Shown here one piece after another: positions 1 to 47,035 of a stretch of 64,000 bases of DNA (the stretch's first letter is position 1; each line of letters begins with the position of its first letter). The stretch comes from a virus. The DNA lies in the IMG/VR virus record IMGVR_UViG_3300045988_173726, positions 192,001-256,000 of that record; one strand, given 5' to 3'. The notes under the pieces are model-generated. The model searched no databases. It was not told where the DNA came from and worked only from the letters and a program-made list of their open reading frames with translations. The position numbers and the translations under genes are program-made.

Positions 1-555
1 TTCACTGCAATTTCATTTGTGGCAGTAATTGCTTGCATAGTTGTAACGTTGGACTGGTATCAGAGTTTTAGCCTATTAAGCAGTGCCGAGAAGTCACTGT
101 CATCCGTAGCATCCAATATTACAGTACAGCCAGCACAGGTTTCATTGAGTTTAGCGACAGATTCTTTCGTTTATGATGAGCAGGGAGGCTCGGTAGTCGG
201 GGATTCTTTGATGTCGTTTAATGCAGGGAGTAATGAATTAAATTTTGGTGTGAGTTATCCTATTAATTCGGGGAAGCAGAAGTCTGTCAAGGTTAGTTTA
301 TCTGGTAAGCGGGATGGTGCTAAGTATCTGTTTACTGTTAAGAAAGCACGCATGATTAAGTCGGTTGAGTTTCAAGTGTCTGGATTAGATAATTCGCTTA
401 ACTGGTATTTGGACGGCAAGCGTGTAATTCCTTCCGATGACGGAATACTTTCGACATCCTATGAGTTTCGGCAGGGGAAATGGTATATCATTTTGATGGG
501 ATACAATAGTGTAGATGGCTCGGTGAGTGACGGAGTTATCATAAAGATTGTGTAG
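1..555 (+). CDS. single-pass membrane protein, member M1 of the 'TM + SGL beta-module' paralog family (5' end may lie upstream of the window)
   Basis: The frame is open from nt 1. The N-terminus is hydrophobic (FTAISFVAVIACIVVTL). The ectodomain aligns by eye with ORF 3808-4410 (NITVQPAQVSLSLATDSFVYDEQGGSVVGDSL vs SIVIQPTTVSLRLPKDSFVYGEHGGSVIGDSL; FQVSGLDNSLNWYLDGKR vs FRVSGLDTSLVWYADGKR). Confidence 0.6.
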   Translation, partial: FTAISFVAVIACIVVTLDWYQSFSLLSSAEKSLSSVASNITVQPAQVSLSLATDSFVYDEQGGSVVGDSLMSFNAGSNELNFGVSYPINSGKQKSVKVSLSGKRDGAKYLFTVKKARMIKSVEFQVSGLDNSLNWYLDGKRVIPSDDGILSTSYEFRQGKWYIILMGYNSVDGSVSDGVIIKIV

Positions 556-589
556 GGTGTCAACCAAAAACACACAGAAAGGTCTACAA

Positions 590-2662
590 ATGGCAGGCTC
601 AATCGAAGAACAGGTCGAGGGATATTACAAGAACCTCTTAAAAGGTTTAGGGGTTCGCTATTATGCAAAGACGGAAGAAGTGAATAGCAAAATCACAGAG
701 GCGTTGAAAAATAGCGTTTCTAAGGGTGGTGGTTCGGGTATGAATTACCCCGACATCAAACTCTTGCTCGAAAATTCCACGCGCCGTGATATTCCCGTCA
801 TGATTGAAGTAAAGGGAACTTTCGGTAAACTTGAAAAAGTTGACAAAAATGGTGAACTTATCGGAGTAACCCCTTGGGCGAGTGATGGTAAAGCCGGGAA
901 AGACGGAAAGCCTACGCATTTCAAAGGTGACCCAAACTATAGCGTTGTCAAAAGCTTTGCTGTAAATGGAGCGATGCACTATGGTTCAGCCATTTTAGAC
1001 GGTGGGTATGACGAAGTAATCATCGTTGGTGTCAATGGTTGCGAGTTAAAAGACGGTCAAGTTGTAAACCCGGAATGCAAGGCTTATTACGTTTCCAAGA
1101 AGAACAACTGCATTCCAAAAATTATTTCTGAAATTACAGCCGAGGATTGGAGTTTGTTTGCTCATGTTGATGACTTATTTGAGCGTTTAGACCAGTTGAA
1201 TTTGTCGGAAGCAGAGATTGAAGCTTTGACTAATAAGACCGAGGCGACACTTGAAGAGAAAATCAAACGGATTCACCAAAGTTTATATGACGATGTTCAA
1301 CTAAAGACAGCGCTTACGACAAATGAAAAGCTGTATCTTTTCTGTGGATTGATTATGGCAGGGTTGAAAACCGATGGCGTTCGTACGTTAGAGGTTAGTG
1401 ACTTGCATTCCAATAACAGTGACCATAACAATGACGGAACGGTTATTCTTAGCAACATTGAGAGCTTTTTGTACGCTAAAAACGCAAGTGTTGAGAAGGT
1501 GCAGCTGATTTCCGGCTTGTTGCGGGGTGTATTCACGAAAGCGGTTTTATGGAAACCGAAGAATGGTGAGAGTTTACTCAAAGTTTTGTTCCATCAAGTG
1601 AAAGTAGACATTATTCCACTGCTCGAAAGTAAACTGCATTTGGACTTTACGGGGCGCATTTTGAATTCCCTTAACGATTGGGTGTCGATTGACAATGACG
1701 CGGCAAATGATGTGGTTTTGACCCCTCGCTACGTCACGCAATTTATGGCGAAATGTGCCCGCACGAACAAGGATTCCTTTGTTTGGGATAAAGCGATGGG
1801 GTCGGCTGGCTTCTTGGTTTCGGCTATGGACGTGATGATTAAGGATGCTCGTGAAACGATTGCAAATCCCGAGGAGTTAGCCAAAAAAATCAAACATATC
1901 AAAGAAAACCAACTCTTAGGGATTGAAATATTGGGGAACATCTACATTCTAGCCGTTCTCAACATGATTTTGATGGGTGACGGTTCATCCTCGGTTCTCC
2001 AAGGGGATTCTCATGACTATGTTTTGTCTAAAGATTTTCCGGCAAATGTCTTTTTGCTGAATCCTCCGTATAGCGCTCAAGGGAAGGGTTTCAACTTTGT
2101 GGAAGAAGCCTTTAGCCAGATGACGCATGGTTACGGTGCTATTCTCATTCAAGACAGTGCAGGAAACGGTCAAGGTTTGCCATATACGGAACGCATTTTG
2201 CGGAACAATACGCTAGAAGCATCCATTAAAATGCCCTCGGGTTTATTTGGGAATAAGGCGAGCGTGTCGGTTTGTATCTTCGTCTTTAAGGTTGGTCGTC
2301 CACATGAAGCAGATGACTTAGTGACTTTTATTGATATGAGCGAGGATGGCTATAGCCGTCTCAATCGTAAGAAGTCAACGCAGGACACGAATCTGCGCGA
2401 CACAGATGACGCAACGGGTCGTTATGAAGAGGTCTTAGCTCGTGTGCTGGGTAAAAAACCAAAAACAACTTATTACACAGAGAGTAACGGTAAGGTCATT
2501 CATGACACTATTAGCTTGAATGGTGATGATTGGCTGTTTGTACAACACCAGAGCTTAGACACTGTACCAACAGAAGCCGATTTCAAAGCGGTGGTTGCTG
2601 ACTATTTGAGTTGGAAGGTTGCTTCGTTGATGAGGGGCGGTAATAGGGATGGTGAAGTTTAA
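590..2662 (+). CDS. gamma-class N6-adenine DNA methyltransferase with an N-terminal PD-(D/E)xK-like region (BcgI-A-like type IIB / IIG-like R-M subunit)
   Basis: ORF 548-2662; ATG 590 (MAGSIEEQ) follows GAAAGG. MTase motif I-like DKAMGSAGFLVSAM and motif IV LLNPPYS are present. About 400 extra N-terminal residues contain NYPD-x19-IEVKG. An overlapping HsdS-like gene follows and no HsdR is visible. Confidence 0.75.
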   Translation: MAGSIEEQVEGYYKNLLKGLGVRYYAKTEEVNSKITEALKNSVSKGGGSGMNYPDIKLLLENSTRRDIPVMIEVKGTFGKLEKVDKNGELIGVTPWASDGKAGKDGKPTHFKGDPNYSVVKSFAVNGAMHYGSAILDGGYDEVIIVGVNGCELKDGQVVNPECKAYYVSKKNNCIPKIISEITAEDWSLFAHVDDLFERLDQLNLSEAEIEALTNKTEATLEEKIKRIHQSLYDDVQLKTALTTNEKLYLFCGLIMAGLKTDGVRTLEVSDLHSNNSDHNNDGTVILSNIESFLYAKNASVEKVQLISGLLRGVFTKAVLWKPKNGESLLKVLFHQVKVDIIPLLESKLHLDFTGRILNSLNDWVSIDNDAANDVVLTPRYVTQFMAKCARTNKDSFVWDKAMGSAGFLVSAMDVMIKDARETIANPEELAKKIKHIKENQLLGIEILGNIYILAVLNMILMGDGSSSVLQGDSHDYVLSKDFPANVFLLNPPYSAQGKGFNFVEEAFSQMTHGYGAILIQDSAGNGQGLPYTERILRNNTLEASIKMPSGLFGNKASVSVCIFVFKVGRPHEADDLVTFIDMSEDGYSRLNRKKSTQDTNLRDTDDATGRYEEVLARVLGKKPKTTYYTESNGKVIHDTISLNGDDWLFVQHQSLDTVPTEADFKAVVADYLSWKVASLMRGGNRDGEV

Positions 2663-3785
2663 GGAGTTTAAGGTCGGGGAGCTGTTTGAGGTGGTAGGCA
2701 ACAAACAAGTGAAGAGCCAGAAAAATATTGTTGCGCGTGATGATGGAATTCCTTTTGTAGTCCAATCAACTAAAAACAATATGGTAAAGTGCCATGTTGA
2801 CCGTGAAAGATTATTAGCCGGTGGTGAGACAGTTTATGAAGGGAACGCGATTGTGTTAGGCGTTGTATCACCTGTTGCGTCTTACCAAGAGACAGAGTTT
2901 GGGGCTAGTCAATCAATTAGTTTGAGAGCTGATTTTTTGAACCCTACGAGAGGGTTATATCTTGTTACAGTGATTAGAAAAGTGATTGAATCCAAATATT
3001 CGTATACAAATTTACCTGGAATCGAAAAATACAAGCAAGATGTGATTCAGCTCCCAGTCAAGCCCGACACTGATGAATCAGATTACACCGAAGCTGACAT
3101 TGACTGGGACTATATGGAGTCCTACATTCACGAATTAGAGGAGTCCTACATTCACGAATTAGACGTTTATCTCAAAGAGACAGGCTTGGATGACTATAGG
3201 TTGACGGATGCCGAGAGAGATGTTATAGGACGTGCGCCTGTGTTTAGAGAGTTTAAGGTCGGGGAGTTGTTTGATGTAACTCAAGGACGACGGTTAAAAA
3301 AGTCAGATTTCGAGAATGGCAATATACCTTTTGTCATGGCAAGTTCTAAAAACAATGGTGTTGTTGCCTATCTATCCAATCCAGTGAACACTAATACGAA
3401 TTTTATCACGGCTGATATTTTAGGGAACGTCTTTTATCAAGATGGTTTGGTTGGGTTTGGTGATGATAATTGCGGGTTGAAGCTCAAAGACGGTAATGAA
3501 TCGGAATCTGTCTATTTATACTTGGCTTGCGCCATTTCACGGTTTAAGTCGATAGCATCATATGGGAATAAATTACGCGGTAAATGGTATAATGAGCAGT
3601 TTATTCAACTCCCAGTCAAGCCAGACACCGATGAAAACAATTATAGTGACTCCGACATTGATTGGGAGTATATGGAGTCCTACATTCGCGTCATGGAAAA
3701 ACAAGTCATCGCTGACGTTGTTGACTACAAAAATGCGGTCATTGAAAACACAAAGAAAATTGTCTCTGGGGCTGGGTTATCATAG
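2649..3785 (+). CDS. R-M specificity subunit (HsdS / BcgI-B-like) with two target-recognition domains
   Basis: The protein shows a two-fold internal repeat. FKEFKVGELFEVV at the N-terminus recurs as FREFKVGELFDVT mid-protein. IQLPVKPDTDESDYTEADIDWDYMESYIHELE recurs as IQLPVKPDTDENNYSDSDIDWEYMESYIRVME. The gene overlaps the MTase gene by 14 nt. Confidence 0.85.
   Translation: MVKFKEFKVGELFEVVGNKQVKSQKNIVARDDGIPFVVQSTKNNMVKCHVDRERLLAGGETVYEGNAIVLGVVSPVASYQETEFGASQSISLRADFLNPTRGLYLVTVIRKVIESKYSYTNLPGIEKYKQDVIQLPVKPDTDESDYTEADIDWDYMESYIHELEESYIHELDVYLKETGLDDYRLTDAERDVIGRAPVFREFKVGELFDVTQGRRLKKSDFENGNIPFVMASSKNNGVVAYLSNPVNTNTNFITADILGNVFYQDGLVGFGDDNCGLKLKDGNESESVYLYLACAISRFKSIASYGNKLRGKWYNEQFIQLPVKPDTDENNYSDSDIDWEYMESYIRVMEKQVIADVVDYKNAVIENTKKIVSGAGLS
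3117..3164 (+). repeat. perfect-but-one tandem 24-bp duplication (2 x ESYIHEL[E/D]) in the central conserved region of the S subunit
   Basis: gagtcctacattcacgaattagag is followed directly by gagtcctacattcacgaattagac. The equivalent C-terminal conserved region carries only one copy (ESYIRVME). Confidence 0.95.
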
Positions 3786-22137: not shown

Positions 22138-22176
22138 AGGCTTAAATAGTATAACTAGTTGGAAACGGAGGGCAAA

Positions 22177-23145
22177 ATGGCAGGGAACAGTAATCTTCAC
22201 AGAGCAAAAGAGGCGAAGAACGATGAGTTCTACACACAGCTTTCGGATGTAGAGAATGAGCTTGTGCATTATCGGGAGCATTTTAGGGGTAAGACAGTGT
22301 TTTGTAACTGTGATGACCCGACATGGAGTGCGTTCTGGAAGTATTTTCATTTGAATTTCGGCTTTCTTGGTCTTACGCGTCTTGTTTCTACGCATTACGA
22401 CAAAGAGCAAAGCACATATATGATGGAGTATCTTGGCGGGGATGATAACGATGTGAGTGTCGGGACGAAAACGCCGCTCAAGGGAAACGGAGATTTTAGA
22501 AACGAAGAGTGTTTGGAATTGCTTCGGCAGAGTGACATCGTGGTGACGAACCCGCCGTTTTCGCTGTTTAGAGAGTTTATCGGGACGCTGATGGAGTATG
22601 AGAAGAAGTTTATTGTGTGGGGAAACAATAACGCTGTAACATATAAGGAATTCTTTCCGTTGATTCGTGAAGATAAGTTATGGCTCGGGTATTTGTCGAA
22701 TAAGACCTGCATATTCGGGGTAGGTGAAGGCTATAGGTACGATGAGAAGATAACGGCACAGATGAATGACGGAATGAAGTACGGGAAAGTTCCTGCAATT
22801 TCGACTTTTACCAACCTCGACATCAAGAAGCGTCACGAAAATCTTATTCTCTATAAGCATTATAGTCCCGAGGGATTTCCGAAGTATGATAACTACGATG
22901 CAATCAACGTAGACAAGGTATCGGATATACCGATGGATTATGACGGAGTAATGGGAGTTCCTATTACATTTCTCGACAAGTATAATCCAGAGCAGTTTGT
23001 GCTTATCGGAACAGATTTTCAAGTAAAAGACGGCGAGTTAGCTGACATCAGAAATAAGAGTTGGGGCGGTAAGTTTGACAGGGGCTATATTAACGGTAAG
23101 CGTCTCTATTCGAGGGTGTTTATTCGTAAAACATTACATAGCTAA
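22177..23145 (+). CDS. adenine-specific DNA methyltransferase, EcoRI-methylase-like family (paralog 1 of 3)
   Basis: GGAGGG RBS. N-terminal RAKEAKNDEFYTQLSDVENEL...GKTVFCNCDDP and catalytic VVTNPPFSLFREFI. Paralogous to 43594-44601 and 44588-45463. Confidence 0.8.
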   Translation: MAGNSNLHRAKEAKNDEFYTQLSDVENELVHYREHFRGKTVFCNCDDPTWSAFWKYFHLNFGFLGLTRLVSTHYDKEQSTYMMEYLGGDDNDVSVGTKTPLKGNGDFRNEECLELLRQSDIVVTNPPFSLFREFIGTLMEYEKKFIVWGNNNAVTYKEFFPLIREDKLWLGYLSNKTCIFGVGEGYRYDEKITAQMNDGMKYGKVPAISTFTNLDIKKRHENLILYKHYSPEGFPKYDNYDAINVDKVSDIPMDYDGVMGVPITFLDKYNPEQFVLIGTDFQVKDGELADIRNKSWGGKFDRGYINGKRLYSRVFIRKTLHS

Positions 23146-27674: not shown

Positions 27675-28516
27675 TTGTAACAGCGGAGACTTTTATTCCT
27701 GCCCTTTTGGGGATTATGCTTGGCTTGATGGTGATATTTATTGCCAGCCTTTGGGTAATCAAGCGTTATGTGTTGTCTGCCTCTCTTGCTATATTAGCCG
27801 CATGTGCGGTATTTACTGTATTTATAGGCTCTATCATATGGTTTTGCAACGATGCTCCAGTAGATAAGCCAGATTTTATACCTAGGGCAAGTAACGAAGT
27901 AATTTCTGGCAGTAACACTAGTATTAACTTCGAATCCTTAACAGTTACAGGCTATTCTGTTGGTTCTCCAGTTCCCTGTAGTTACTCTTCTAACGGGAGT
28001 GTAGGCGGTTCAGCTTCGATTCAGAGTGGTAGTGTTAATGGAGATATGAATACTAGCTTTAATTGGTATGCCTATCCTATGACCGTGCCTGTTGATAGCC
28101 AAAATTCTGGGAGCTTAGTGTCTTTTGGCATTCTGTTTGATAACTTGTCAGCTAATTGCAGTGTAAATCTTTCTTCTCCTGCTACAAACGGAGACAACAA
28201 GTATATTTTGAACGCGAAAGCCGACTTTAATAACGGGGTGTCAGAGTCGTTTGGAATTGCTGGTGGTAAGGTGCGGTTTAGCGGGTTGCAGTACGGAAAG
28301 AGTTATGCTTTTGGTGATAAGAGCCTTACAGTGGCAGAGGATGGAACGGCAGAGGTAGAGTTTACTGTTCCAGACTACGGGTATGTGGACAGTATGTTTC
28401 CAGATTTGTATTCGGTTAGGCTTGTAAAAGCCGAGGGAAATTCCTTGGAGACAGAGTTAATTTTGTATGTGAAGCGTCCAATAAAGAGGGCTGTGGATGT
28501 GCGAGCGGGGAAGTGA
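27671..28516 (+). CDS. membrane protein, family member M8 (two N-terminal hydrophobic segments)
   Basis: Signature KVRFSGLQYGKSYAFGDKSLTVAEDGTAEVEFTVPDYG. N-terminal TM segments. Confidence 0.75.
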   Translation: MIVTAETFIPALLGIMLGLMVIFIASLWVIKRYVLSASLAILAACAVFTVFIGSIIWFCNDAPVDKPDFIPRASNEVISGSNTSINFESLTVTGYSVGSPVPCSYSSNGSVGGSASIQSGSVNGDMNTSFNWYAYPMTVPVDSQNSGSLVSFGILFDNLSANCSVNLSSPATNGDNKYILNAKADFNNGVSESFGIAGGKVRFSGLQYGKSYAFGDKSLTVAEDGTAEVEFTVPDYGYVDSMFPDLYSVRLVKAEGNSLETELILYVKRPIKRAVDVRAGK

Positions 28517-28546
28517 ATTTGGCTAAAAATTTTCCTGTAAAAACAG

Positions 28547-28575
28547 TTGACAGCTTAGAGGCAATCTGCTAGACT
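28547..28575 (+). promoter_or_regulatory. sigma-70/sigma-A-type promoter of the tRNA array
   Basis: TTGACA - 17 bp - TAGACT, with an A/T-rich upstream stretch (AAAAATTTTCCTGTAAAAACA). Confidence 0.6.
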
Positions 28576-28738
28576 ATGGTTGTGGTTAAGAGAGAGGCGG
28601 GAGCGGCTGAATCGTCATGGGACTTTTACAGGTTCTGCGCATCTCAAGACCACTTAAGAGAGGGGATAGCGTTATCTCCTAGCGCAGAGGGTACTGCGGG
28701 ATGCGCGGCGTTTAACAGAGTTTAAGCGCCGTAAGGAA

Positions 28739-28811
28739 CGGGATGTGGCTCAAGTGGTAGAGCGCTTGCTTTGGGAGCAAGACGTTGCAGGTTCAAGTCC
28801 TGTCATTCCGA
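28739..28811 (+). tRNA. tRNA-Pro (anticodon TGG)
   Basis: Hand-folded cloverleaf: CGGGATG / TG / GCTC-AAGTGGTA-GAGC / G / CTTGC-TTTGGGA-GCAAG / ACGTT / GCAGG-TTCAAGT-CCTGT / CATTCCG / A. No encoded CCA. Confidence 0.85.
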
Positions 28812-28884
28812 TTTACCGTATGGGGATGTACGGTAAGCCACTTTGCCTCCTTACAATGTGGGATTTTCCAGACGGATAGACGGT

Positions 28885-28950
28885 GTGGCGGTAGTGTAGA
28901 GGGAGCATGACGCTAAGGCGTAGGAGCGGGTTCGAGCCTCGCCCGTCACA
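28885..28950 (+). ncRNA. tRNA-like element TL1 (66 nt) lacking an anticodon loop
   Basis: GTGGCGG / CCGTCAC acceptor; D arm GTGT-AGAGGGA-GCAT; canonical T arm GCGGG-TTCGAGC-CTCGC. The anticodon-arm position holds only ACGC-TAAG-GCGT. No 5-bp/7-nt-loop alternative was found by exhaustive hand check. Confidence 0.45.
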
Positions 28951-29026
28951 TTAGCTGACTTCGGTCAGCGAACATTTTCCTCATCTCCAACAAACAGAGC
29001 GGCGAGTGCGTGAATACCATTCGCCT

Positions 29027-29075
29027 CGGATACGCGACATATGGTCGCCGCTGGGTGCAAGTCCTAGGTATCCGA
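29027..29075 (+). ncRNA. tRNA-like mini-element TL2 (49 nt)
   Basis: CGGATAC / GTATCCG acceptor; one hairpin GCGAC-ATATG-GTCGC; T-like arm CTGGG-TGCAAGT-CCTAG. The T loop is non-canonical. Confidence 0.3.
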
Positions 29076-29131
29076 TTTGCTAGAGCATCCGTGAACAGTG
29101 CTTTAGCGGTTAACCAATCAAATTGTCTTGG

Positions 29132-29190
29132 AAGTCAGTAGTTTAGTGGTAAAACGCTTTGAGACGCGGGTTCGAGTCCCGTCTGACTTC
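29132..29190 (+). ncRNA. tRNA-like element TL3 (59 nt): tRNA-Gly-type body without an anticodon arm
   Basis: AAGTCAG / TA / GTTT-AGTGGTA-AAAC / G / CTTTGAGAC / GCGGG-TTCGAGT-CCCGT / CTGACTT / C. Only 9 nt occupy the place of the ~22-nt anticodon arm plus variable loop. Confidence 0.5.
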
Positions 29191-29260
29191 TTCCGTCCCT
29201 CGGAATTTCCCCCGTTGGCTTGAGAAGGCTCACCGACACACAACTCCGAGGAGACGGTTT

Positions 29261-29306
29261 ACGGGCGCGGTAAGGCGCAGTGGGGGTTCAACTTCCCCCG
29301 CCCGTT
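29261..29306 (+). ncRNA. tRNA-like minihelix TL4 (46 nt)
   Basis: Perfect 7-bp acceptor ACGGGCG / CGCCCGT, a 14-nt linker, and a canonical T arm GGGGG-TTCAACT-TCCCC. Confidence 0.4.
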
Positions 29307-29368
29307 CTGTGCGGTCGTTGTCTTGCAAAATACCTGCCAAGTGAGACAGCGCTCCGCACTCCCCCCAA

Positions 29369-29442
29369 GGAAAGGTGGCTCAATAGGTGAGAGCATTCGG
29401 CTCATAACCGAACGGTTGCGGGTTCGAGTCCCGCCCTTTCCA
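29369..29442 (+). tRNA. tRNA with CAT anticodon (elongator Met or, after lysidinylation, Ile2)
   Basis: GGAAAGG / TG / GCTC-AATAGGTGA-GAGC / A / TTCGG-CTCATAA-CCGAA / CGGTT / GCGGG-TTCGAGT-CCCGC / CCTTTCC / A. Initiator hallmarks are absent (G1:C72 pair; no GGG/CCC in the anticodon stem). Confidence 0.85.
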
Positions 29443-29455
29443 CTAGAGTTTTTAG

Positions 29456-29519
29456 ACGACAGTAGTTTACGGGAATGCGCCAAAGGCGCGGAGAGAGGTT
29501 CGATTCCTTTCCTGTCGTA
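29456..29519 (+). ncRNA. tRNA-like element TL5 (64 nt) with a triloop in place of the anticodon loop
   Basis: ACGACAG / CTGTCGT acceptor. The anticodon-arm position is GCGCC-AAA-GGCGC. T arm (G)AGAGG-TTCGATT-CCTTT(C). Confidence 0.4.
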
Positions 29520-29587
29520 TAGCCGTAGTTCCGTGATACTCCATATCTGCTACGGTGAATCCTTTCTGGTACCTGCTGGTGCTTGGT

Positions 29588-29652
29588 TGTGCGGTAGCTT
29601 AACGGCTAGAGCTAGGCGTAGTCCGATGCGGGTTCGACTCCCGCCTGCACAA
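29588..29652 (+). ncRNA. tRNA-like element TL6 (65 nt) lacking an anticodon arm
   Basis: TGTGCGG / CTGCACA acceptor; D arm GCTT-AACGGCTA-GAGC; perfect T arm GCGGG-TTCGACT-CCCGC. Only 15 nt lie between the D and T arms. Confidence 0.45.
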
Positions 29653-29697
29653 TTTGTCCGAAGGTCGGGCAAAAATACTATGGTTTCGATTACTCGG

Positions 29698-29761
29698 TAG
29701 GGCGTTCGTTTAAGCGGAAAGACGGCATATTGCCATGTAGGTTCGACTCCTACGCGCCTAC
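29698..29761 (+). ncRNA. tRNA-like element TL7 (64 nt) with a triloop in place of the anticodon loop
   Basis: Acceptor TAGG(G)CGT / GCGCCTA with one bulge; D arm GTTT-AAGCGGAA-AGAC. The anticodon-arm position is GGCA-TAT-TGCC. T arm GTAGG-TTCGACT-CCTAC. Confidence 0.3.
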
Positions 29762-29826
29762 TCGTAACTGTAGAGTTTGGTTGGGCTTTGCAGTTACGGG
29801 ATACAAGCCCAGAGTTTGTATCCTAC

Positions 29827-29900
29827 GCTTTGTTAGTTCAGTTGGGAGAACGCACGGCTGTAAAGCGTGGTCGCCATTGGTTCGAGTCCAATACAGAGCG
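29827..29900 (+). tRNA. tRNA-Tyr (anticodon GTA), short-variable-loop form
   Basis: GCTTTGT / TA / GTTC-AGTTGGGA-GAAC / G / CACGG-CTGTAAA-GCGTG / GTCGCC / ATTGG-TTCGAGT-CCAAT / ACAGAGC / G. There is a G:G mismatch at the loop-closing pair and no long variable arm. Confidence 0.65.
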
Positions 29901-29929
29901 TTAGACCATATGGTCTAAAGAGTTTATCT

Positions 29930-30008
29930 GCTGTCGTGGTGGAATAGGTATACACGGCGGACTTAAAATCCGCTGGCTTCGAGCCATGTTCAAATCCGAC
30001 CGTCAGCA
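29930..30008 (+). pseudogene. tRNA-Leu (TAA)-like gene with an unpaired T stem (possible pseudogene or aberrant tRNA)
   Basis: Class-II layout: GCTGTCG / TG / GTG-GAATAGGTATA-CAC / G / GCGGA-CTTAAAA-TCCGC / variable hairpin TGGCT-TCG-AGCCA. The 5 nt before TTCAAAT (CCATG) cannot pair with CCGAC. The acceptor has one T:T mismatch. Confidence 0.45.
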
Positions 30009-30170
30009 TTGCTTGTGCCATAGATGCCCTAAGTATTGTTCCTTGGAGCAGGATGCAGGCATCACAAGTAGAACTTCCGTCTAAGCGAGGCGAATGCTCC
30101 AGTCCTTGCGATGACGGGGAGAGCCGAAGTTCAAATCATTAGAGTAGGCATAGTTATAGGCTTTCAGTGT

Positions 30171-30258
30171 GGAGAGGTACTCAAGTGGTTTAAGAGAACG
30201 GTCTTGAAAACCGTGAGGTCGTGAAAACGGCGCGAGGGTTCAAATCCCTCCTTCTCCG
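30171..30258 (+). tRNA. tRNA-Ser (anticodon TGA)
   Basis: GGAGAGG / CTTCTCC acceptor; ACGGT-CTTGAAA-ACCGT anticodon arm; long variable arm; T arm GAGGG-TTCAAAT-CCCTC. Confidence 0.85.
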
Positions 30259-30398
30259 TTAGAGGTGTTTTGCTGGTTCACCTCTAAACCTCCTTCTTTT
30301 TGGAAACAGCCGTTCGCTTATTTCGGGCAAGATAAGCGGAAAAGTAAGTACTGTGGCTAAGGACGCAGTGTTTACCAGAGGGATGGCGACCCTCATAT

Positions 30399-30486
30399 GG
30401 AGAGATACTCAAGTTGGTGAAGAGGACAGGTTGCTAACCTGTTAGGTCGCGAAAGTGGCGCAAGGGTTCAAGCCCCTTTCTCTCCG
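30399..30486 (+). tRNA. tRNA-Ser (anticodon GCT)
   Basis: GGAGAGA / TCTCTCC acceptor; ACAGG-TTGCTAA-CCTGT anticodon arm; long variable arm; T arm AAGGG-TTCAAGC-CCCTT. Confidence 0.85.
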
Positions 30487-30543
30487 TTCTGCCGTTTATT
30501 TCCCTAAGTGTGTGCTTTGGGAGCGAGCGGCAGTATTAAACAG

Positions 30544-30593
30544 TCCTATATAGATGTATTAAACTCAAGATAGTTTAGCATCTCCCTGTAGGA
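30544..30593 (+). repeat. copy 1 of a ~50-nt conserved hairpin element (R1)
   Basis: tcctatatagatgtattaaactcaagatagtttagcatctccctgtagga. Outer stem TCCTATA/TGTAGGA, inner stem AGATG/CATCT. Aligns with 30989-31037. Confidence 0.8.
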
Positions 30594-30751
30594 CGTAGAT
30601 TACTTGCCTCGTGTGAGCGTAAAGCGTTCACAGAAAAGTATGGGCGTTGCACACGCGCCTATGCACTGCAGAATGCCGCACTGTAAATGCGGAAGCCGAA
30701 TGGCATAAAGTGTCTGCGGGGACAGTGGCTAGGGCGGGCGCTGTCCGATTT

Positions 30752-30825
30752 GAGGCTGTAGCTTATCTGGATAAAGCGACAGATTCCTAATCTGTAGACG
30801 GTAGGTTCGAGTCCTATCAGCCTCA
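30752..30825 (+). tRNA. tRNA-Arg (anticodon CCT)
   Basis: GAGGCTG / TA / GCTT-ATCTGGATA-AAGC / G / ACAGA-TTCCTAA-TCTGT / AGACG / GTAGG-TTCGAGT-CCTAT / CAGCCTC / A. Confidence 0.85.
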
Positions 30826-30832
30826 TTGTTTT

Positions 30833-30904
30833 GCCGTGATAGCACAATGGCAGTGCATTTGATTTGTAATCAAAAGGTTATCGGTTCGAGTCCGATTTGC
30901 GGCT
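30833..30904 (+). tRNA. tRNA-Thr (anticodon TGT)
   Basis: GCCGTGA / TA / GCAC-AATGGCA-GTGC / A / TTTGA-TTTGTAA-TCAAA / AGGTT / ATCGG-TTCGAGT-CCGAT / TTGCGGC / T. Confidence 0.85.
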
Positions 30905-30907
30905 TAT

Positions 30908-30987
30908 GCCCGCATGGTGGAATAGGCAGACACGCTGGATTTAGGTTCCAGTGGGAAACCGTGTAGGTTCAAATCCTACTGTGGGCA
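30908..30987 (+). tRNA. tRNA-Leu (anticodon TAG)
   Basis: GCCCGCA / TGTGGGC acceptor; CTGGA-TTTAGGT-TCCAG anticodon arm; 11-nt variable region; T arm GTAGG-TTCAAAT-CCTAC. Confidence 0.8.
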
Positions 30988-30988
30988 T

Positions 30989-31037
30989 TCCTATACAGAT
31001 GTATCAACACAAGATAGTTGGGCATCTCCCTGTAGGA
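30989..31037 (+). repeat. copy 2 of the conserved hairpin element R1
   Basis: tcctatacagatgtatcaacacaagatagttgggcatctccctgtagga. Both stems and the CAAGATAGTT loop core are conserved with copy 1. Confidence 0.8.
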
Positions 31038-31114
31038 TGCGTGGCTATCGTAGTTGTTTACCCCTTATGACTGCGGTAGCCCCTTTGTTTGTATAGGGGA
31101 TAGAGGAGGTAGAG

Positions 31115-31456
31115 ATGAGCGAAAGACAGGGAGATATGAGTTATAAGGGCTTTGTGGGCGAGGTCAAGTATTCGGAAGAGGACGGAAAGTTTATCGGTCG
31201 AGTGCTTGATATTGAGGATGCAGAGCTTGAGTTTGCGGGTAGCTCCGTGAGTGAGTTGCAGGAGGGCTTTCGTGCGGTGGTTGACCGTTATCTGGAGCTT
31301 AAGGGTGACGACCAAGATGTAGAAATCGAGGTTACGCTAAAGAAAAGCCTTTTGCGGGCGGTTGTAGAGTGTGCGGAAGAGCAGGAAGTGACGATTGACG
31401 AGTTTGTGAGCGCGGCGCTGTTTGACTATTGCAGTGCGAATTACGGGGAAGAGTAA
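31115..31456 (+). CDS. hicB: HicB-family antitoxin-like protein (no adjacent HicA)
   Basis: AGGAGG RBS. YKGFVGEVKYSEEDGKFIGRVLDIEDAELEFAGSSVSELQEGFRAVVDRYLE matches the HicB-like antitoxin N-domain pattern. The C-terminus is RHH-like (VTLKKSLLRAVVECAEEQEVTIDEFVSAAL). Confidence 0.7.
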   Translation: MSERQGDMSYKGFVGEVKYSEEDGKFIGRVLDIEDAELEFAGSSVSELQEGFRAVVDRYLELKGDDQDVEIEVTLKKSLLRAVVECAEEQEVTIDEFVSAALFDYCSANYGEE

Positions 31457-31462
31457 CGCGCG

Positions 31463-32452
31463 GTGATTACGAATAGAGTATTTTCGGCAGTAAAACAGAG
31501 CCTTGACAAAGCGACCAGTGCAGAGGATGTACTGGTCGTTGCTGTATCTGGGGGCGCGGATAGTATGTGTTTATTAGACACTGTGCGACAGATACGGAGA
31601 CAGGTCGGGAAAGTAGTTGTGTGTCACTTGCATCATGGGGTAAGGACGGACGGTAGTGCAGAGCGGGATATGCTCTTGGTAAAGGGGTATTGTGACGGAT
31701 GCGGGATACCCTTCTTTTATCGGCGGGTAGATGTGCCGAGTATTGTAGAGGAAACGGGGAAGTCGGCAGAGCTTGTCGGGAGAGAGCTTCGGTATCGGTT
31801 TTTTAACGAGGTAGGGTCGTGTTACGGTTCGTATAAGATTCTGACTGGGGCAAATGCGAATGATTCTGTAGAGACAGTGCTTATGCACTTAATTCGTGGG
31901 GCTTCGGTAGATGGTTTATGCGGGATACGGGAAGTAAACGGTAGGGTAGTTCGTCCTTTGGTCGGGGTAAGTCGGAGAGAGATAGAGGCTTATGTTAAGG
32001 GAAACGGAGTTCCGTATAGCATAGACCCTACAAACCTAGAAGTAGAGTATACGAGAAACAAGGTTAGATTAGAGCTACTCCCGTATATCGAGGGGAATTT
32101 GAATCCTAACATCGTGAATACGCTTTTAAGTAGCATAAAGTCGTTTTCGGAGGACAGTGAGACGCTTAATCGGCTTACGGAGAGGGCGTATCAGAAGTAT
32201 TTACTTAGGGATACGGGGAAGGAGCGAGTGTTTTCGCTTAGTCTTTTAGGTGAAGATAGGTCGATAGTGAAGCGGGTACTGCTTAGAGCAGTACGAGAGG
32301 TGCTTAACACAACGCAGTTTAGCTTTAAGACAGCGATGATAGATAAGCTACTGGATAGCCCGCTTACAGATGGCAGGACTCGGCAGGTAAGTTTATCAAA
32401 GCGCCTAAAGGTAGTTGTATCAAAGGGAAGGATAGCAGTCATTTCGGAGTGA
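31463..32452 (+). CDS. tilS: tRNA(Ile)-lysidine synthetase
   Basis: PP-loop motif VLVVAVSGGADSMCLLD; size and downstream conserved segments (HLHHG, TGANANDSVETVLMHLIRG) are typical of TilS. GTG start. Confidence 0.8.
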   Translation: MITNRVFSAVKQSLDKATSAEDVLVVAVSGGADSMCLLDTVRQIRRQVGKVVVCHLHHGVRTDGSAERDMLLVKGYCDGCGIPFFYRRVDVPSIVEETGKSAELVGRELRYRFFNEVGSCYGSYKILTGANANDSVETVLMHLIRGASVDGLCGIREVNGRVVRPLVGVSRREIEAYVKGNGVPYSIDPTNLEVEYTRNKVRLELLPYIEGNLNPNIVNTLLSSIKSFSEDSETLNRLTERAYQKYLLRDTGKERVFSLSLLGEDRSIVKRVLLRAVREVLNTTQFSFKTAMIDKLLDSPLTDGRTRQVSLSKRLKVVVSKGRIAVISE

Positions 32453-43593: not shown

Positions 43594-44601
43594 ATGGGAC
43601 GAAACAGCGAGCTAAATCGGGCGCGAGTTGGTAAAAATGACGAGTTTTATACAGATATGTCGGATGTTTCAAAGGAGATGGTGTGTCATAGGGAACAGTT
43701 TAGGGGAAAGACTGTGTTTCTTAACTGTGATGACCCAGTTACAAGCGCCTTTTGGGAGTATTTTCACTTAAATTTCGGGTTTCTCGGGCTTAGGCGGCTC
43801 ATTGCTACGCATTACGACAAGGATAAGCCGACATATAAGCTTGAGTATTGCGGTGGGGACGATAACGAGGTTCTTGTAGGGTATAAGACAGCTCTTATCG
43901 GGAACGGAGATTTTAGGAACGAAGAGTGCCTTGCACTCTTAAAAGAGAGCGACATAGTAGTTACAAACCCGCCGTTTTCTCTGTTTCGGGAGTTTATCGG
44001 GACGCTTATAGCATATGAGAAAAAGTTTATTATCCTCGGGAATATGAACGCAGTAACAGCGAAAGAGGTATTCGATTTATTCCGCGAGAATAAGGTCTGG
44101 TACGGTGATTCGATTCATTCTGGGGATAGACGATTTTATGTGCCAGAGAGCTATCCGCTTAACGCGGCTGGGTGCGGAGTCGATGCGGACGGTAGGCGGT
44201 TTATACGGGTCAAGGGAGTTCGCTGGTTTACGAATCTTCCTGTCAAATGTAGGTCTGAAAAGATTATTCTGTATAAGCAATACAGTGAAGCAGAATATCC
44301 GAAGTTTAATAAGTTTGATGTGATAAATGTGGACAAGACAGCGGAGATACCTGTGGATTATTCTGGCGTTATGGCAGTTCCGATTTCATTTCTCGATAAA
44401 TATAATCCAGAGCAGTTTGAGATAGTTACACTAAGAAAGTTATCGGACGGGAGTGTGAGAGCGTTTAGCGGGAACGAGGGAAGTGAGTTTCCCGTTGCTA
44501 CGAGGATAGCGGGGATGTTAAGGGGAAATGAAGGAGAGGTTGGAGATAGAACAACTTATGCGAGGATAACGATACGGGGGAAAGTCGGTGGCAGAGAATG
44601 A
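43594..44601 (+). CDS. adenine-specific DNA methyltransferase, EcoRI-methylase-like family (paralog 2)
   Basis: RARVGKNDEFYTDMSDVSKEM...GKTVFLNCDDP; VVTNPPFSLFREFI. It has a C-terminal extension relative to paralog 1. Confidence 0.8.
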   Translation: MGRNSELNRARVGKNDEFYTDMSDVSKEMVCHREQFRGKTVFLNCDDPVTSAFWEYFHLNFGFLGLRRLIATHYDKDKPTYKLEYCGGDDNEVLVGYKTALIGNGDFRNEECLALLKESDIVVTNPPFSLFREFIGTLIAYEKKFIILGNMNAVTAKEVFDLFRENKVWYGDSIHSGDRRFYVPESYPLNAAGCGVDADGRRFIRVKGVRWFTNLPVKCRSEKIILYKQYSEAEYPKFNKFDVINVDKTAEIPVDYSGVMAVPISFLDKYNPEQFEIVTLRKLSDGSVRAFSGNEGSEFPVATRIAGMLRGNEGEVGDRTTYARITIRGKVGGRE

Positions 44602-45463
44602 AAAGATAAATGAGCGGCTTAAGCGTGCAAAGGATAGGCAGGACGATGAGTTTTATACGCAGTATTCGGACATAGAGCGGGAGCTAAGATATTACGAGTC
44701 TAAGTTTGTCGGAAAGCGGATTTATTGTAACTGTGATAATCCGCTTGAGAGCGCATTCTTTCGATATTTTCACTTAAATTTTAATAGGCTCGGGCTTCGG
44801 AGTTTAACAGCAACACATCTTTCAGAGAATAGAGCCTTTTGTGCCAGATATACAGGGGAATGCGATAAGGATGTGCGAGTTTATTTATCAGAGCCGCTTA
44901 AGGGGGACGGTGACTTTAGAAGTGATGAGTGCAGGGAGCTATTAAAGAGTTCCGATATAGTTTGTACGAATCCACCGTTTTCTTTGGCAAGAGAATTTAT
45001 TGAGACACTGGTAACAGAGGACAAGTTATTTTTAATTGTCGGAGCGTTGCCTTGGCTCGGGTACGGTACGGTGTTTCCGCTTATTCGGGATAATAAGATT
45101 TGGGTCGGGATTAACGACATAACCGAGTTTATCCGTCCCGATGGGACTTTTCGGCATATCGGTTTCGGGCTTTGGCTCACGAATCTTGATAACGAGCGGC
45201 GGCATAAACGAATAGAGTTAAAGGCGCAGTTTTCTAGTGAAGCGTATACGAAATATGATAATTTTGACGCTATAAATGTGGATAAGGTAGCGGATATACC
45301 AAAAGATTATTTCGGAGTAATGGGGCTTCCTCTGCCGTTTCTGAAACAATATAATCCCGAGCAGTTTGAGATAGTGGGGTTTCGGAAAGGGAATGACGGG
45401 AAAGATTTGAGAGTAGGGGAGCAAGAGCTTTTTAGCCGAGTGTTAATTCGGAGAAAGGAGTAA
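44588..45463 (+). CDS. adenine-specific DNA methyltransferase, EcoRI-methylase-like family (paralog 3)
   Basis: GTG start overlapping paralog 2 by 14 nt. RAKDRQDDEFYTQYSDIEREL...GKRIYCNCDNP; VCTNPPFSLAREFI. Confidence 0.8.
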   Translation: MAENEKINERLKRAKDRQDDEFYTQYSDIERELRYYESKFVGKRIYCNCDNPLESAFFRYFHLNFNRLGLRSLTATHLSENRAFCARYTGECDKDVRVYLSEPLKGDGDFRSDECRELLKSSDIVCTNPPFSLAREFIETLVTEDKLFLIVGALPWLGYGTVFPLIRDNKIWVGINDITEFIRPDGTFRHIGFGLWLTNLDNERRHKRIELKAQFSSEAYTKYDNFDAINVDKVADIPKDYFGVMGLPLPFLKQYNPEQFEIVGFRKGNDGKDLRVGEQELFSRVLIRRKE

Positions 45464-45874: not shown

Positions 45875-47035
45875 ATGAAGATTTCAGAGCGTAAATTAAA
45901 GGTTTCGGAGCTTGTGGCGGGCTATACCGATGACGGCGAGGACGGTGTTTTCGGATTTGGTGGGAAGCTTTCGATTCGTCCCGCATATCAGAGAGAGTTC
46001 GTTTATAAGGATGCACAGAGGAATGCGGTGATTGATTCGGTGCTTTGCGGGTATCCTCTGAATGTGATGTATTGGTCGAAGGTCGGGGATGACAAGTATG
46101 AGGTGCTTGACGGACAGCAGAGAACGATTTCGATTTGTCAGTTTATTAACAGCGGTTTCTCTATGAAGATAGACGGAAACGCGAAGTTTTATCATAATTT
46201 AACCGAGGATGAGAAGCAGATAATCCTAAACTACGAGTTATCGGTTTATGTGTGTGAGGGTAACGAGTCAGAAAAGCTTGCTTGGTTTAAGAGGATAAAC
46301 ATACCTGGGGCTGTTCTCACAGAGCAAGAACTTCTTAACGCGACATATACAGGAACTTGGCTTTCGGATGCGAAGAACTACTTTTCTCGGCGTAATTGCG
46401 TAGCTGGAAAGGTAGGAGAAGGGTTTATCAAGGGAAATCCGATACGGCAGGATTATCTTGAGAAAGCGTTAGCTTGGATAGCACTTCGAGACGGGTTAGC
46501 GAGTGGAGAGCAGTATATGGCGTTGCATCAGCATGACGCGGACGCAAGTGACATATGGCTTTATTTCCAAGAGGTGATTGCGTGGGCGAAGCGGTATTTT
46601 CCAGATATGGATAAGAAGCTCACGGAGGCACAGGATTGGGGCGCACTGTATACTAAGCATAAGACATGGAAGTATAATCCCAGTGAGCTAAAGAAAGAGG
46701 TTTCAAAGCTTTTGGAGGACGATGATGTAACGAAGCAGACAGGAATCATTCCGTATGTCTTATCGGAGAAAACGAGGCATGATGAGAGATACTTGTCGAT
46801 TCGGGCATTTTCCGACCAGATGAAGCGAAGAGTTTATCAGCGTCAGACAGAGGAAGCCGAGAAGAAGCACTTGTCAAACTGCCCGTATTGTGCGCAGGAG
46901 GGTCTTACTAAGATTTACGAGTATAGCGAGATGCAGGGCGACCATATAGTAGCGTGGCGAAACGGTGGAAAGACGGTAGAGAGTAACTTGCAGATGCTCT
47001 GTGCGGCTTGTAATAACGCAAAGAGCGGGAAGTAA
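45875..47035 (+). CDS. DUF262 (ParB/Srx-fold, GmrSD-N-like) + HNH nuclease fusion
   Basis: DGQQRT motif (YEVLDGQQRTISICQF). C-terminal HNH: CPYCAQ...GDHIVAWRNGGKTVESNLQMLCAACNNAKSGK. Confidence 0.8.
   Translation: MKISERKLKVSELVAGYTDDGEDGVFGFGGKLSIRPAYQREFVYKDAQRNAVIDSVLCGYPLNVMYWSKVGDDKYEVLDGQQRTISICQFINSGFSMKIDGNAKFYHNLTEDEKQIILNYELSVYVCEGNESEKLAWFKRINIPGAVLTEQELLNATYTGTWLSDAKNYFSRRNCVAGKVGEGFIKGNPIRQDYLEKALAWIALRDGLASGEQYMALHQHDADASDIWLYFQEVIAWAKRYFPDMDKKLTEAQDWGALYTKHKTWKYNPSELKKEVSKLLEDDDVTKQTGIIPYVLSEKTRHDERYLSIRAFSDQMKRRVYQRQTEEAEKKHLSNCPYCAQEGLTKIYEYSEMQGDHIVAWRNGGKTVESNLQMLCAACNNAKSGK

Follow-up and report, generated by a model that had tools for sequence, protein, structure and literature searches.

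We report that seven small tRNA-like elements, here called TL1–TL7, lie within a tRNA gene array in a 64-kb stretch of viral DNA (positions 192,001 to 256,000 of IMG/VR record IMGVR_UViG_3300045988_173726; this whole stretch is termed the window, and coordinates count from its first nucleotide). The elements are 45–66 nt long, are found between tRNA-Pro and tRNA-Tyr, and each keeps an acceptor stem and a T arm. The anticodon arm has been lost from all seven and they hence cannot decode. Comparison with related genomes identifies the elements as genuine selected genes for small RNAs rather than decaying pseudogenes, and their anatomy suggests that they may serve as handles for RNA processing and stability.

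The original prediction, made by reading the sequence without database searches, had proposed seven tRNA-shaped elements with no anticodon loop, and this is supported by ARAGORN, by structure prediction, and by the central stubs with 3–4-nt loops. The anticodon arm has given way to a stub of 3–5 bp, a small hairpin to one side or simply a linker (Table 1), and a D loop with the conserved GG is kept in four elements (TL1, TL3, TL5 and TL6). A 7-bp acceptor on a 5-bp T stem with a TTCRANN loop is exact in TL1, TL3 and TL6. TL2 matches this rule apart from its loop, making it the one element off consensus, in line with the six consensus T arms first described, while TL4, TL5 and TL7 match with a register shift or a bulge: the T stem of TL5 is 6 bp or carries a 1-nt bulge, and in most relatives the acceptor/T stack of TL4 is 11 bp instead of 12 bp. 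None of the seven encodes CCA, as had been noted. The description of TL4 as an acceptor and T arm joined by a linker (14 nt) holds, but TL2, described in the same way, is relocated to 29027–29074 and contains a side hairpin, and the '15 unstructured nt' assigned to TL6 can instead form a 3-bp stub, GGC-GTA-GYC across genomes. Pairwise matches among the seven elements are 0.51–0.74, no higher than between different tRNA isotypes, ruling out recent duplication as their origin. TL3 had been likened to the body of a Firmicute tRNA-Gly; BLAST against phage records returned generic T-arm matches alone for both TL3 and TL6, and gave this ancestry no support.

Table 1. Positions and structural features of the tRNA-like elements and associated genes in the window.
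Feature	Position	Strand	Description
Sigma-70-type promoter	28547..28575	+	TTGACA-17-TAGACT, extended -10 TG
tRNA-Pro (TGG)	28739..28811	+	First array gene; identity 0.995 over 15 genomes
Spacer 1	28812..28884	+	73 nt; 5′-end hairpin; contains CCUCCUUA
TL1	28885..28950	+	7-bp acceptor; D arm with GG loop; central stub of 4 bp with 4-nt loop (ACGC-TAAG-GCGT); T arm GCGGG-TTCGAGC-CTCGC; discriminator A
TL2	29027..29075	+	7-bp acceptor CGGATAC/GTATCCG; 5-bp side hairpin replaces D and anticodon arms; T arm with non-consensus loop TGCAAGT; discriminator A
TL3	29132..29190	+	Acceptor, canonical D arm, T arm; stubless, 10-nt linker between D and T arms replaces anticodon arm and variable loop; 58 nt plus discriminator
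TL4	29261..29306	+	Acceptor and T arm; 14-nt linker replaces D and anticodon arms
tRNA, anticodon CAT	29369..29443	+	Canonical (ARAGORN); invariant in 15 genomes
TL5	29456..29518	+	Acceptor, 3-bp D arm with GG, T arm
TL5 central stub	29477-29489	+	5 bp, GCGCC-AAA-GGCGC
TL6	29588..29652	+	Acceptor, canonical D arm with GG loop, T arm; stub of 3 bp with 3-nt loop, GGC-GTA-GTC; discriminator A
TL7	29697..29761	+	Acceptor with bulged G, D-like hairpin without GG, T arm; central stub of 4 bp, GGCA-TAT-TGCC
tRNA-Tyr	29826-29901	+	ARAGORN
Remaining array	29826..30988	+	tRNA-Tyr, Leu, Ser, Ser, Arg, Thr, Leu
TilS gene	31463..32452	+	tRNA(Ile)-lysidine synthetase catalytic domain; TIGR02432 160.9 bits; PF01171

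Standard tools pass over most of these elements. Between tRNA-Pro (28739–28811) and tRNA-Tyr, ARAGORN called the CAT tRNA alone, the single canonical tRNA that had been folded by hand there, and none of the seven elements. Across the window it called nine tRNAs (Pro, CAT, Tyr, Leu, Ser, Ser, Arg, Thr and Leu), in line with the expected 8–9. The Rfam tRNA model (RF00005, gathering score 29 bits) had likewise been expected to miss or flag the elements, and did so for five: TL2, TL4 and TL5 were not reported, and TL6 and TL7 reached ∼20 bits, to tRNA-Sec alone. TL1 (39.6 bits) and TL3 (48.4 bits) scored above the gathering score, passing it only with the anticodon arm deleted; in the alignment of TL3, 15 anticodon-arm model positions collapse onto 3 nt. 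When folded, all seven closed with an acceptor-like helix and every element except TL1 formed a T-arm hairpin; the minimum free energy (MFE) fold of TL1 lacks a canonical T arm. We wrote a scan for T arms that stack on 7-bp acceptors; it recovered TL1–TL6 and the real tRNAs, with 0.6 hits per 64 kb in random sequence of the same composition, and found TL7 under relaxed rules, where one bulge is required. No TL elements beyond TL1–TL7 were found in the rest of the array (29826–30988). An additional match at 61722–61774 is AT-rich, lies within an open reading frame (ORF) and was treated as chance.

Fifteen distinct versions of the array were available for comparison, from closely related, recombining genomes in which most double changes come from a single relative, L020. 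In a first alignment of six genomes, identity to the window was 0.993 for the true tRNAs, 0.966 for the TL stems, 0.95 for the TL middles and 0.915 for the spacers. Third codon positions in the four flanking genes with substantial alignments were 0.61–0.89 identical to the window, so that the elements are better conserved than the third codon positions of neighbouring genes. We then analysed 93 base pairs of TL1, TL2, TL3, TL6 and TL7 in the 15 genomes. Of the 24 pairs that vary, 21 are paired in every genome and five carry changes on both sides, and standard pairs make up 99.2% of cells, compared with 36–47% when the 3′ partner is slid by 1–3 columns; the covariation looked for in related arrays is thus present. 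In TL1, compensatory changes in L020 convert acceptor pair 6 from G-C to A-U and T-stem pair 3 from G-C to U-A. The TL3 acceptor has double-sided changes at three pairs, and its strand reads AAGTCAG, GAGTCAG, GGGTCAG, AGGGCGG or AGGTCGG across genomes with pairing always kept. Acceptor pair 6 of TL4 likewise changes from C-G to U-A in L020. A G.U to G-C change in two genomes supports pairing in the TL6 stub, with an A.C mismatch at the adjacent pair in one genome. The proposal that the acceptors differ in sequence yet stay fully paired is therefore borne out for sequence and nearly so for pairing, the departures being the bulge of TL7, with an A.C mismatch at its acceptor pair 4 in 9 of the 15 genomes, and the register shift of TL4.

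The loops tell a similar story. T54, T55, C56 and A58 are never substituted, T-loop substitutions being confined to positions 57, 59 and 60, which vary in real tRNAs too, and the D-loop GG is invariant though its neighbours vary. At the TL5 position, the stub loop is AAA, TTT or TAG in some genomes, and a 20–26-nt insertion turns the stub into a 10–12-bp hairpin with an 11–12-nt loop in eight relatives (L005, L006, L008, L009, L017, L025, L026 and L028), clearly demonstrating that stub length is unconstrained here and that the stub sequence is not read. Taken as evidence of selection, the covariation, the T-loop and D-loop conservation, and identity above that of third codon positions argue that structure rather than sequence is selected, as the original prediction had it. 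By these comparisons, selection acts on the stacked acceptor and T arm and, in TL1, TL3, TL5 and TL6, also on the nucleotides of the elbow, and not on an anticodon or a specific acceptor identity.

Elements of the same kind occur in other phages. We searched IMG/VR with one narrow pattern, a common D-arm 3′ half followed after 5–20 nt by a common T arm, where real tRNAs have about 25–26 nt; the acceptor filter was of our own design, and the census figures are lower bounds that apply among the matches listed. A perfect 7/7 acceptor at canonical geometry was present in 51 of the 121 matches listed, compared with 1% in the control, and at least 66 matches, at least 58 of them distinct, were retained under strict criteria, with a length mode of 57 nt and no anticodon arm. 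A looser filter returned 78 elements among the matches listed, of which ARAGORN called three, and 51 had no other tRNA in the stretch examined. With the same pattern, 17 of the 116 matches listed from bacterial and archaeal genomes were proper elements, so that the class is enriched in viral DNA relative to chance matches. At no fewer than nine loci, the element is followed by a terminase small-subunit gene of the same strand (median distance 35 nt), with at least 5 further loci where this gene is nearby; terminase large subunits (at least 14 loci) and portal genes are the other recurrent same-strand neighbours among the matches listed. One IMG/VR family (L044, L068, L083, L088, L093, L102, L119 and L127) sits directly upstream of terminase small-subunit genes and has a 3′ acceptor strand that reads GGAGGGGA. 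Because this strand is Shine-Dalgarno-like in appearance, formation of the acceptor stem could mask the terminase ribosome-binding site in this family.

A larger array was found in a 180-kb contig (IMGVR_UViG_2529292852_000001, L076) with no match among GenBank phages, where 13 short elements occupy 13.5 kb on one strand (L076:351-12879) and no canonical tRNA was found among them. This array mixes a 54–61-nt type with a 43–48-nt type that resembles TL2 and TL4, and genes for TnpB, IscB-like (RRXRR) and RepA_N proteins are interspersed. Candidates also exist in cultured phages of the Enterococcus phiEF24C group: phi EF14H1 (LC596378, L033) has two, at 1569–1626 and 1652–1704, ∼25 nt apart, and the same pair is present in 35 near-identical phiEF24C-type phages just upstream of a ROOL RNA gene and a tRNA array, either unannotated or overlapped by 'hypothetical protein' calls. 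The evidence for this pair is weaker, as the sequences are invariant and the MFE folds lack a T arm. The ROOL gene (265 bits) lies at L033:1836-2412, between the pair and the tRNA array, and in a rumen-type contig (L031:1-184) ROOL neighbours tRNAs as well as a TilS-like gene; there seems to be an association of large ornate RNAs with tRNAs and tRNA-like elements.

Members of the class that we propose follow the tRNA order of acceptor, D arm and T arm, have a short linker between the D and T arms, and span about 54–66 nt. TL3 fits this description, TL1, TL5, TL6 and TL7 are stub-keeping variants, and TL2 and TL4 resemble the shorter L076 type. Although we would place it a little short of an even chance, anticodon-arm-less tRNA-like genes may form a widespread, phage-enriched and undescribed small-RNA class, occurring singly (often upstream of terminase), beside tRNAs or in arrays of 7–13, that would plug into the host tRNA machinery as cut signals for RNase P and RNase Z or as decoys against immunity directed at the acceptor end.

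How the elements are arranged in the window bears on their function. All are on the strand of the nine true tRNAs, within a non-coding stretch (28520–31100) that houses the array and downstream of the region's sole promoter-like site (28547–28575), the only one in 28300–31500 and kept in most relatives. We found no convincing internal terminator in the array, where two terminator-like sites do not exceed the level in shuffled sequence. All 12 spacers (28812–31114) open with a stable hairpin no more than 4 nt from the upstream 3′ end, compared with 6.8 expected from shuffles (p about 0.001, as the product of per-spacer shuffle fractions). Spacer 1 is 0.998 identical over the 15 genomes, on par with the true tRNAs, and could itself encode a small RNA; its CCUCCUUA resembles the 3′ end of 16S rRNA. 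Spacer 5 is 0.974 identical, and most of the others are 0.79–0.92 identical, below the elements themselves. From tRNA-Tyr onwards (29826–30988), the spacers are mostly long and structured (138–263 nt), the Tyr-Leu, Arg-Thr and Thr-Leu gaps being just 2–27 nt. The anti-Shine-Dalgarno-like motif CCTCCTT occurs three times in the window, always in the array (two copies in spacers and one inside a tRNA-Ser); because such motifs are strongly under-represented on the coding strand anyway, we draw no conclusion from this clustering.

What RNase P, RNase Z and the CCA-adding enzyme recognise in a tRNA is its acceptor, T arm and elbow; the anticodon arm is ignored. The elements keep the part read by these enzymes and have lost the part read by the ribosome and most synthetases, and because the three enzymes ignore the anticodon arm, the elements should be cut out and CCA-tailed. 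From the enzymology, precise cuts by RNase P and RNase Z would be expected on either side of each element, followed by CCA addition, which would release 45–66-nt tRNA mimics together with hairpin-capped spacers. In Bacillota, a terminal hairpin is expected to shield a released RNA from 5′ exonucleases. The elements would thus act as tRNA-like punctuation that sets RNA ends in a long phage transcript without extra decoding tRNAs, a role that would also account for the related elements that other phages carry immediately ahead of terminase genes. The anatomy slightly favours this reading because of the single promoter, the hairpin-first spacers and the elements abutting terminase genes elsewhere, and we put the probability that processing and stability handles are the main job of TL1–TL7 at about 0.4. 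A precedent is the YrlA RNA of Mycobacterium smegmatis, which has a 7-bp acceptor-like stem, is cut by RNase P in vitro, and is cleaved and CCA-tailed in vivo (PMC4201824).

Several observations weigh against such a role. Processing is deduced from anatomy and precedent, and the supposed cargo is poorly kept except for spacers 1 and 5, most spacers (0.79–0.92) falling below the elements in conservation. Real tRNAs are already there to punctuate the array's second half, making the need for seven extra handles not obvious. TL2, TL4 and TL7 are without a canonical elbow, several elements deviate from the 12-bp stack that processing enzymes measure, and the regularity of the spacer hairpins is modest evidence at its p value.

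It is less probable, and on balance rather doubtful, that the elements work in trans as decoys or competitive inhibitors, in which case processed, CCA-tailed RNAs would bind host factors (for example CCA-end toxins or nucleases) at the acceptor end, T arm or elbow, whatever the anticodon, and so spare the real tRNAs. That the conserved units are the elements, above most spacers, is consistent with this, as is pairing that is kept while sequence drifts, a pattern suited to shape-specific recognition. The window also carries genes of counter-defence type (several DNA methylases and a HicB-like antitoxin), and the phi EF14H1 candidate pair lies downstream of promoter-like sequences, as read by eye. 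Shape-specific recognition is found in bacterial immunity, where Cas12a3 recognises the tail, acceptor and T arm by shape with tolerance of sequence (PMC12851939), and phage tRNAs are known to counter host defences that cut tRNAs (PMC10264068, PMC11555353, PMC12445682). However, a decoy has no known target in this host, and a few RNAs would face a very large tRNA pool unless they bound much more tightly. Many related elements lie tight against terminase gene starts on the same strand, which is not predicted for a free-standing decoy, and the Enterococcus pair, being invariant, offers no covariation and folds without a T arm.

Neutral pseudogenes, chargeable minihelices and a role at the DNA level are all unlikely. 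Were the elements decaying tRNA pseudogenes, the anticodon hairpin would have been lost by replication slippage and the remnants would persist without function; hairpins are deletion-prone, TL7 has its A.C mismatch in most genomes, TL4 has its register shift, and some relatives carry, in place of tRNA-Tyr, an allele whose anticodon loop is 6 nt or 8 nt long. Decay is nevertheless very hard to reconcile with loss of the same arm in all seven while acceptor and T stems stay paired, with the compensated pairs, unchanged T-loop and D-loop positions and above-third-position identity described earlier, or with the same architecture in at least 58 distinct sequences of other viral contigs with a sharp length mode. 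AlaRS, SerRS and other synthetases charge minihelices, that is, acceptor/T-arm helices, with the anticodon unread, and the elements might in principle carry amino acids for non-ribosomal use (cell-wall or lipid aminoacylation, or protein tagging) or bind EF-Tu; their seven different acceptor stems resemble an isoacceptor set, and discriminator bases are present. We regard this as highly improbable, since position 3:70 is G-C, A-U or U-A in all seven and never the G3.U70 that AlaRS requires, the TL3 acceptor drifts between strains more freely than an identity set would permit, and the scan of window proteins turned up no aminoacyl-transferase among those it covered. A DNA-level role, in which the sequences would be repeated palindromes or would be targeted for recombination or insertion (by IS200/IS605-type elements or integrases, for example), could be read into the TnpB-associated RNA fragments in the array, the ∼1.5-kb and ∼0.8-kb insertions in relatives, the full copies of that RNA ∼3.3 kb downstream of TilS in two relatives, the TnpB and IscB-like genes that break up the 13-element L076 array, and the resemblance of the 43–48-nt type to a repeat family with inverted ends, but it is scarcely credible given that G.U-tolerant covariation and a strand-specific T-loop consensus point to RNA as the selected form, that all elements are on the tRNA strand behind a promoter, and that those in the window are not mutual repeats (0.51–0.74).

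The gene content of the window is typical of a large phage, with topoisomerase II subunits, DNA methylases and a cell-wall hydrolase, and its large ORFs are almost all on the + strand. Contigs of the relatives (IMG/VR and metagenome) are 215–272 kb, with flanking proteins ∼78–96% identical to those of the window, which therefore comes from a jumbo phage clade. Sample names hint at a human-associated, probably gut, origin. BLAST found no relatives of the array among GenBank phages, returning ordinary tRNA matches alone (6–8% of the query). A HicB-like gene and the TilS gene lie directly downstream of the array, and since TilS adjoins it, the CAT tRNA is probably tRNA-Ile2 rather than tRNA-Met. 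No tRNA-related enzyme other than TilS was found by Pfam among 40 window proteins, smaller ORFs being left out. The closest TilS homologs outside the clade are at most 46% identical, with identity dropping from 92% directly to 46%; the nearest with a named source are from Clostridia and Bacillota, and the two looked up (P0062 and P0099) are in bacterial TilS-FtsH loci. TilS matches of 44–51% in a metagenome scan were rejected as distant relatives, as they belong to another phage lineage with ROOL RNA and normal tRNAs.

Restriction and anti-restriction-type genes are abundant in the window (548–3785, 22159–23145, 43594–45463, 45875–47035 and 31115–31456), among them three EcoRI-like adenine methylases, a type I methylase accompanied by its specificity subunit, a HicB-like antitoxin that stands alone, and a GmrSD-N/HNH protein. 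The Arg-Thr-Leu tRNAs are flanked, at 30543–30662 and 30988–31038, by two partial matches (47–49 bits, cut-off 94 bits) to the TnpB-associated IS605-orfB-I RNA that have a ∼50-nt repeat in common. The full copies (∼190 bits) downstream of TilS are in relatives L006 and L008, and the insertions within the array are in relatives L005 (∼1.5 kb) and L025 (∼0.8 kb). The divergent allele in place of tRNA-Tyr was seen in several relatives (L006:8386-8459, L008:8384-8455 and L009:8389-8462), with an anticodon loop of 8 nt or 6 nt for which ARAGORN reports 'taaa' and 'ta', and may be another tRNA gene of the clade that is losing decoding ability.

The nearest phage precedent for TL1–TL7 is T4 species 1 RNA (rnaC), a stable non-decoding RNA that likewise lies inside a phage tRNA cluster on the tRNA strand and has a canonical T arm (CCGGG-UUCGAAU-CCCGG) near its 3′ end, closed by a short terminal helix. 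It differs in being a single gene of 139 nt rather than an array of seven, with a large structured insert in place of a short stub and a weak terminal helix in place of a clean 7-bp acceptor, and we found no sequence relationship to the elements here. To our knowledge, the function of species 1 RNA is still unknown. YrlA RNAs also mimic the acceptor stem, D arm and T arm, keep tRNA tertiary pairs, are modified by tRNA enzymes, and are present in phages beside tRNAs, for example in Rhizobium phage RHph_TM61. Unlike the TL elements, which are in tRNA order and end at the acceptor, YrlA has a permuted order (T arm, acceptor-like hairpin, D arm) and ends on the anticodon-stem side, joined to a Ro60-binding stem, and its gene adjoins a Ro60/TROVE gene. 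The Rfam YrlA model (RF02553) matched the TL elements at 16–17 bits against a cut-off of 69, and no TROVE domain was found among the same 40 window proteins in the Pfam search. In RHph_TM61, a 59-nt acceptor/T-arm element (L036:4827-4885) ∼390 nt upstream of a TROVE (Ro60) gene, in the phage tRNA region, is probably part of a YrlA-type Y RNA.

Outside phages, mascRNA/MEN-beta (RF01684) and the tRNA-like RNAs of murine herpesvirus MHV68 share a tRNA-like fold with a shortened, non-decoding anticodon region, and are excised from a longer transcript by RNase P and RNase Z and then CCA-tailed. These are eukaryotic nuclear or herpesviral systems with no evidence of common descent with the TL elements, and the best match to RF01684 was TL3 at 19.3 bits (E = 1.4), compared with a gathering score of 42.5. 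The t-elements of plant mitochondria, acceptor/T-arm mimics beside genes, form mRNA ends by serving as cleavage sites for RNase P and RNase Z. With organelle tRNA punctuation, they are the closest functional analogy to processing handles, though they are organellar and degenerate and are not known to form arrays. In tmRNA, the tRNA-like domain likewise combines an acceptor stem with a T arm and is devoid of an anticodon arm, but tmRNA requires G3.U70, absent from all seven elements, along with an internal reading frame, pseudoknots and SmpB, and ARAGORN found no tmRNA in the window. Judged on sequence and predicted structure, the TL elements thus fail the defining tests of the mascRNA, YrlA and tmRNA families.

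The original prediction knew of no described phage system of this kind, and in full-text literature searches we found no description of anticodon-less tRNA-like genes in phages; the claim is tempered by the partial precedents above and by the wider phage-enriched class. In the part of it available to us, a survey of candidate structured RNAs in viruses describes 'tRNA-like' motifs called by ARAGORN only sometimes, and these may overlap the TL class. Standard annotation overlooks such elements, ARAGORN having passed over 7/7 here and 75/78 elsewhere. Phage tRNA genes are now viewed as weapons against tRNA-cutting defences, and conserved look-alikes that do not decode imply that the tRNA shape is put to another use as well. 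As processing signals, they would mean that organelle-type tRNA punctuation operates in phage transcripts, and they could be of use in engineering as compact tags for RNA processing; as decoys, they would be a counter-defence made of RNA, aimed at enzymes whose target is the acceptor end of tRNA. Compared with known tRNA-mimic RNAs, the array form, the clear selection on structure and the wide occurrence in phages are notable.

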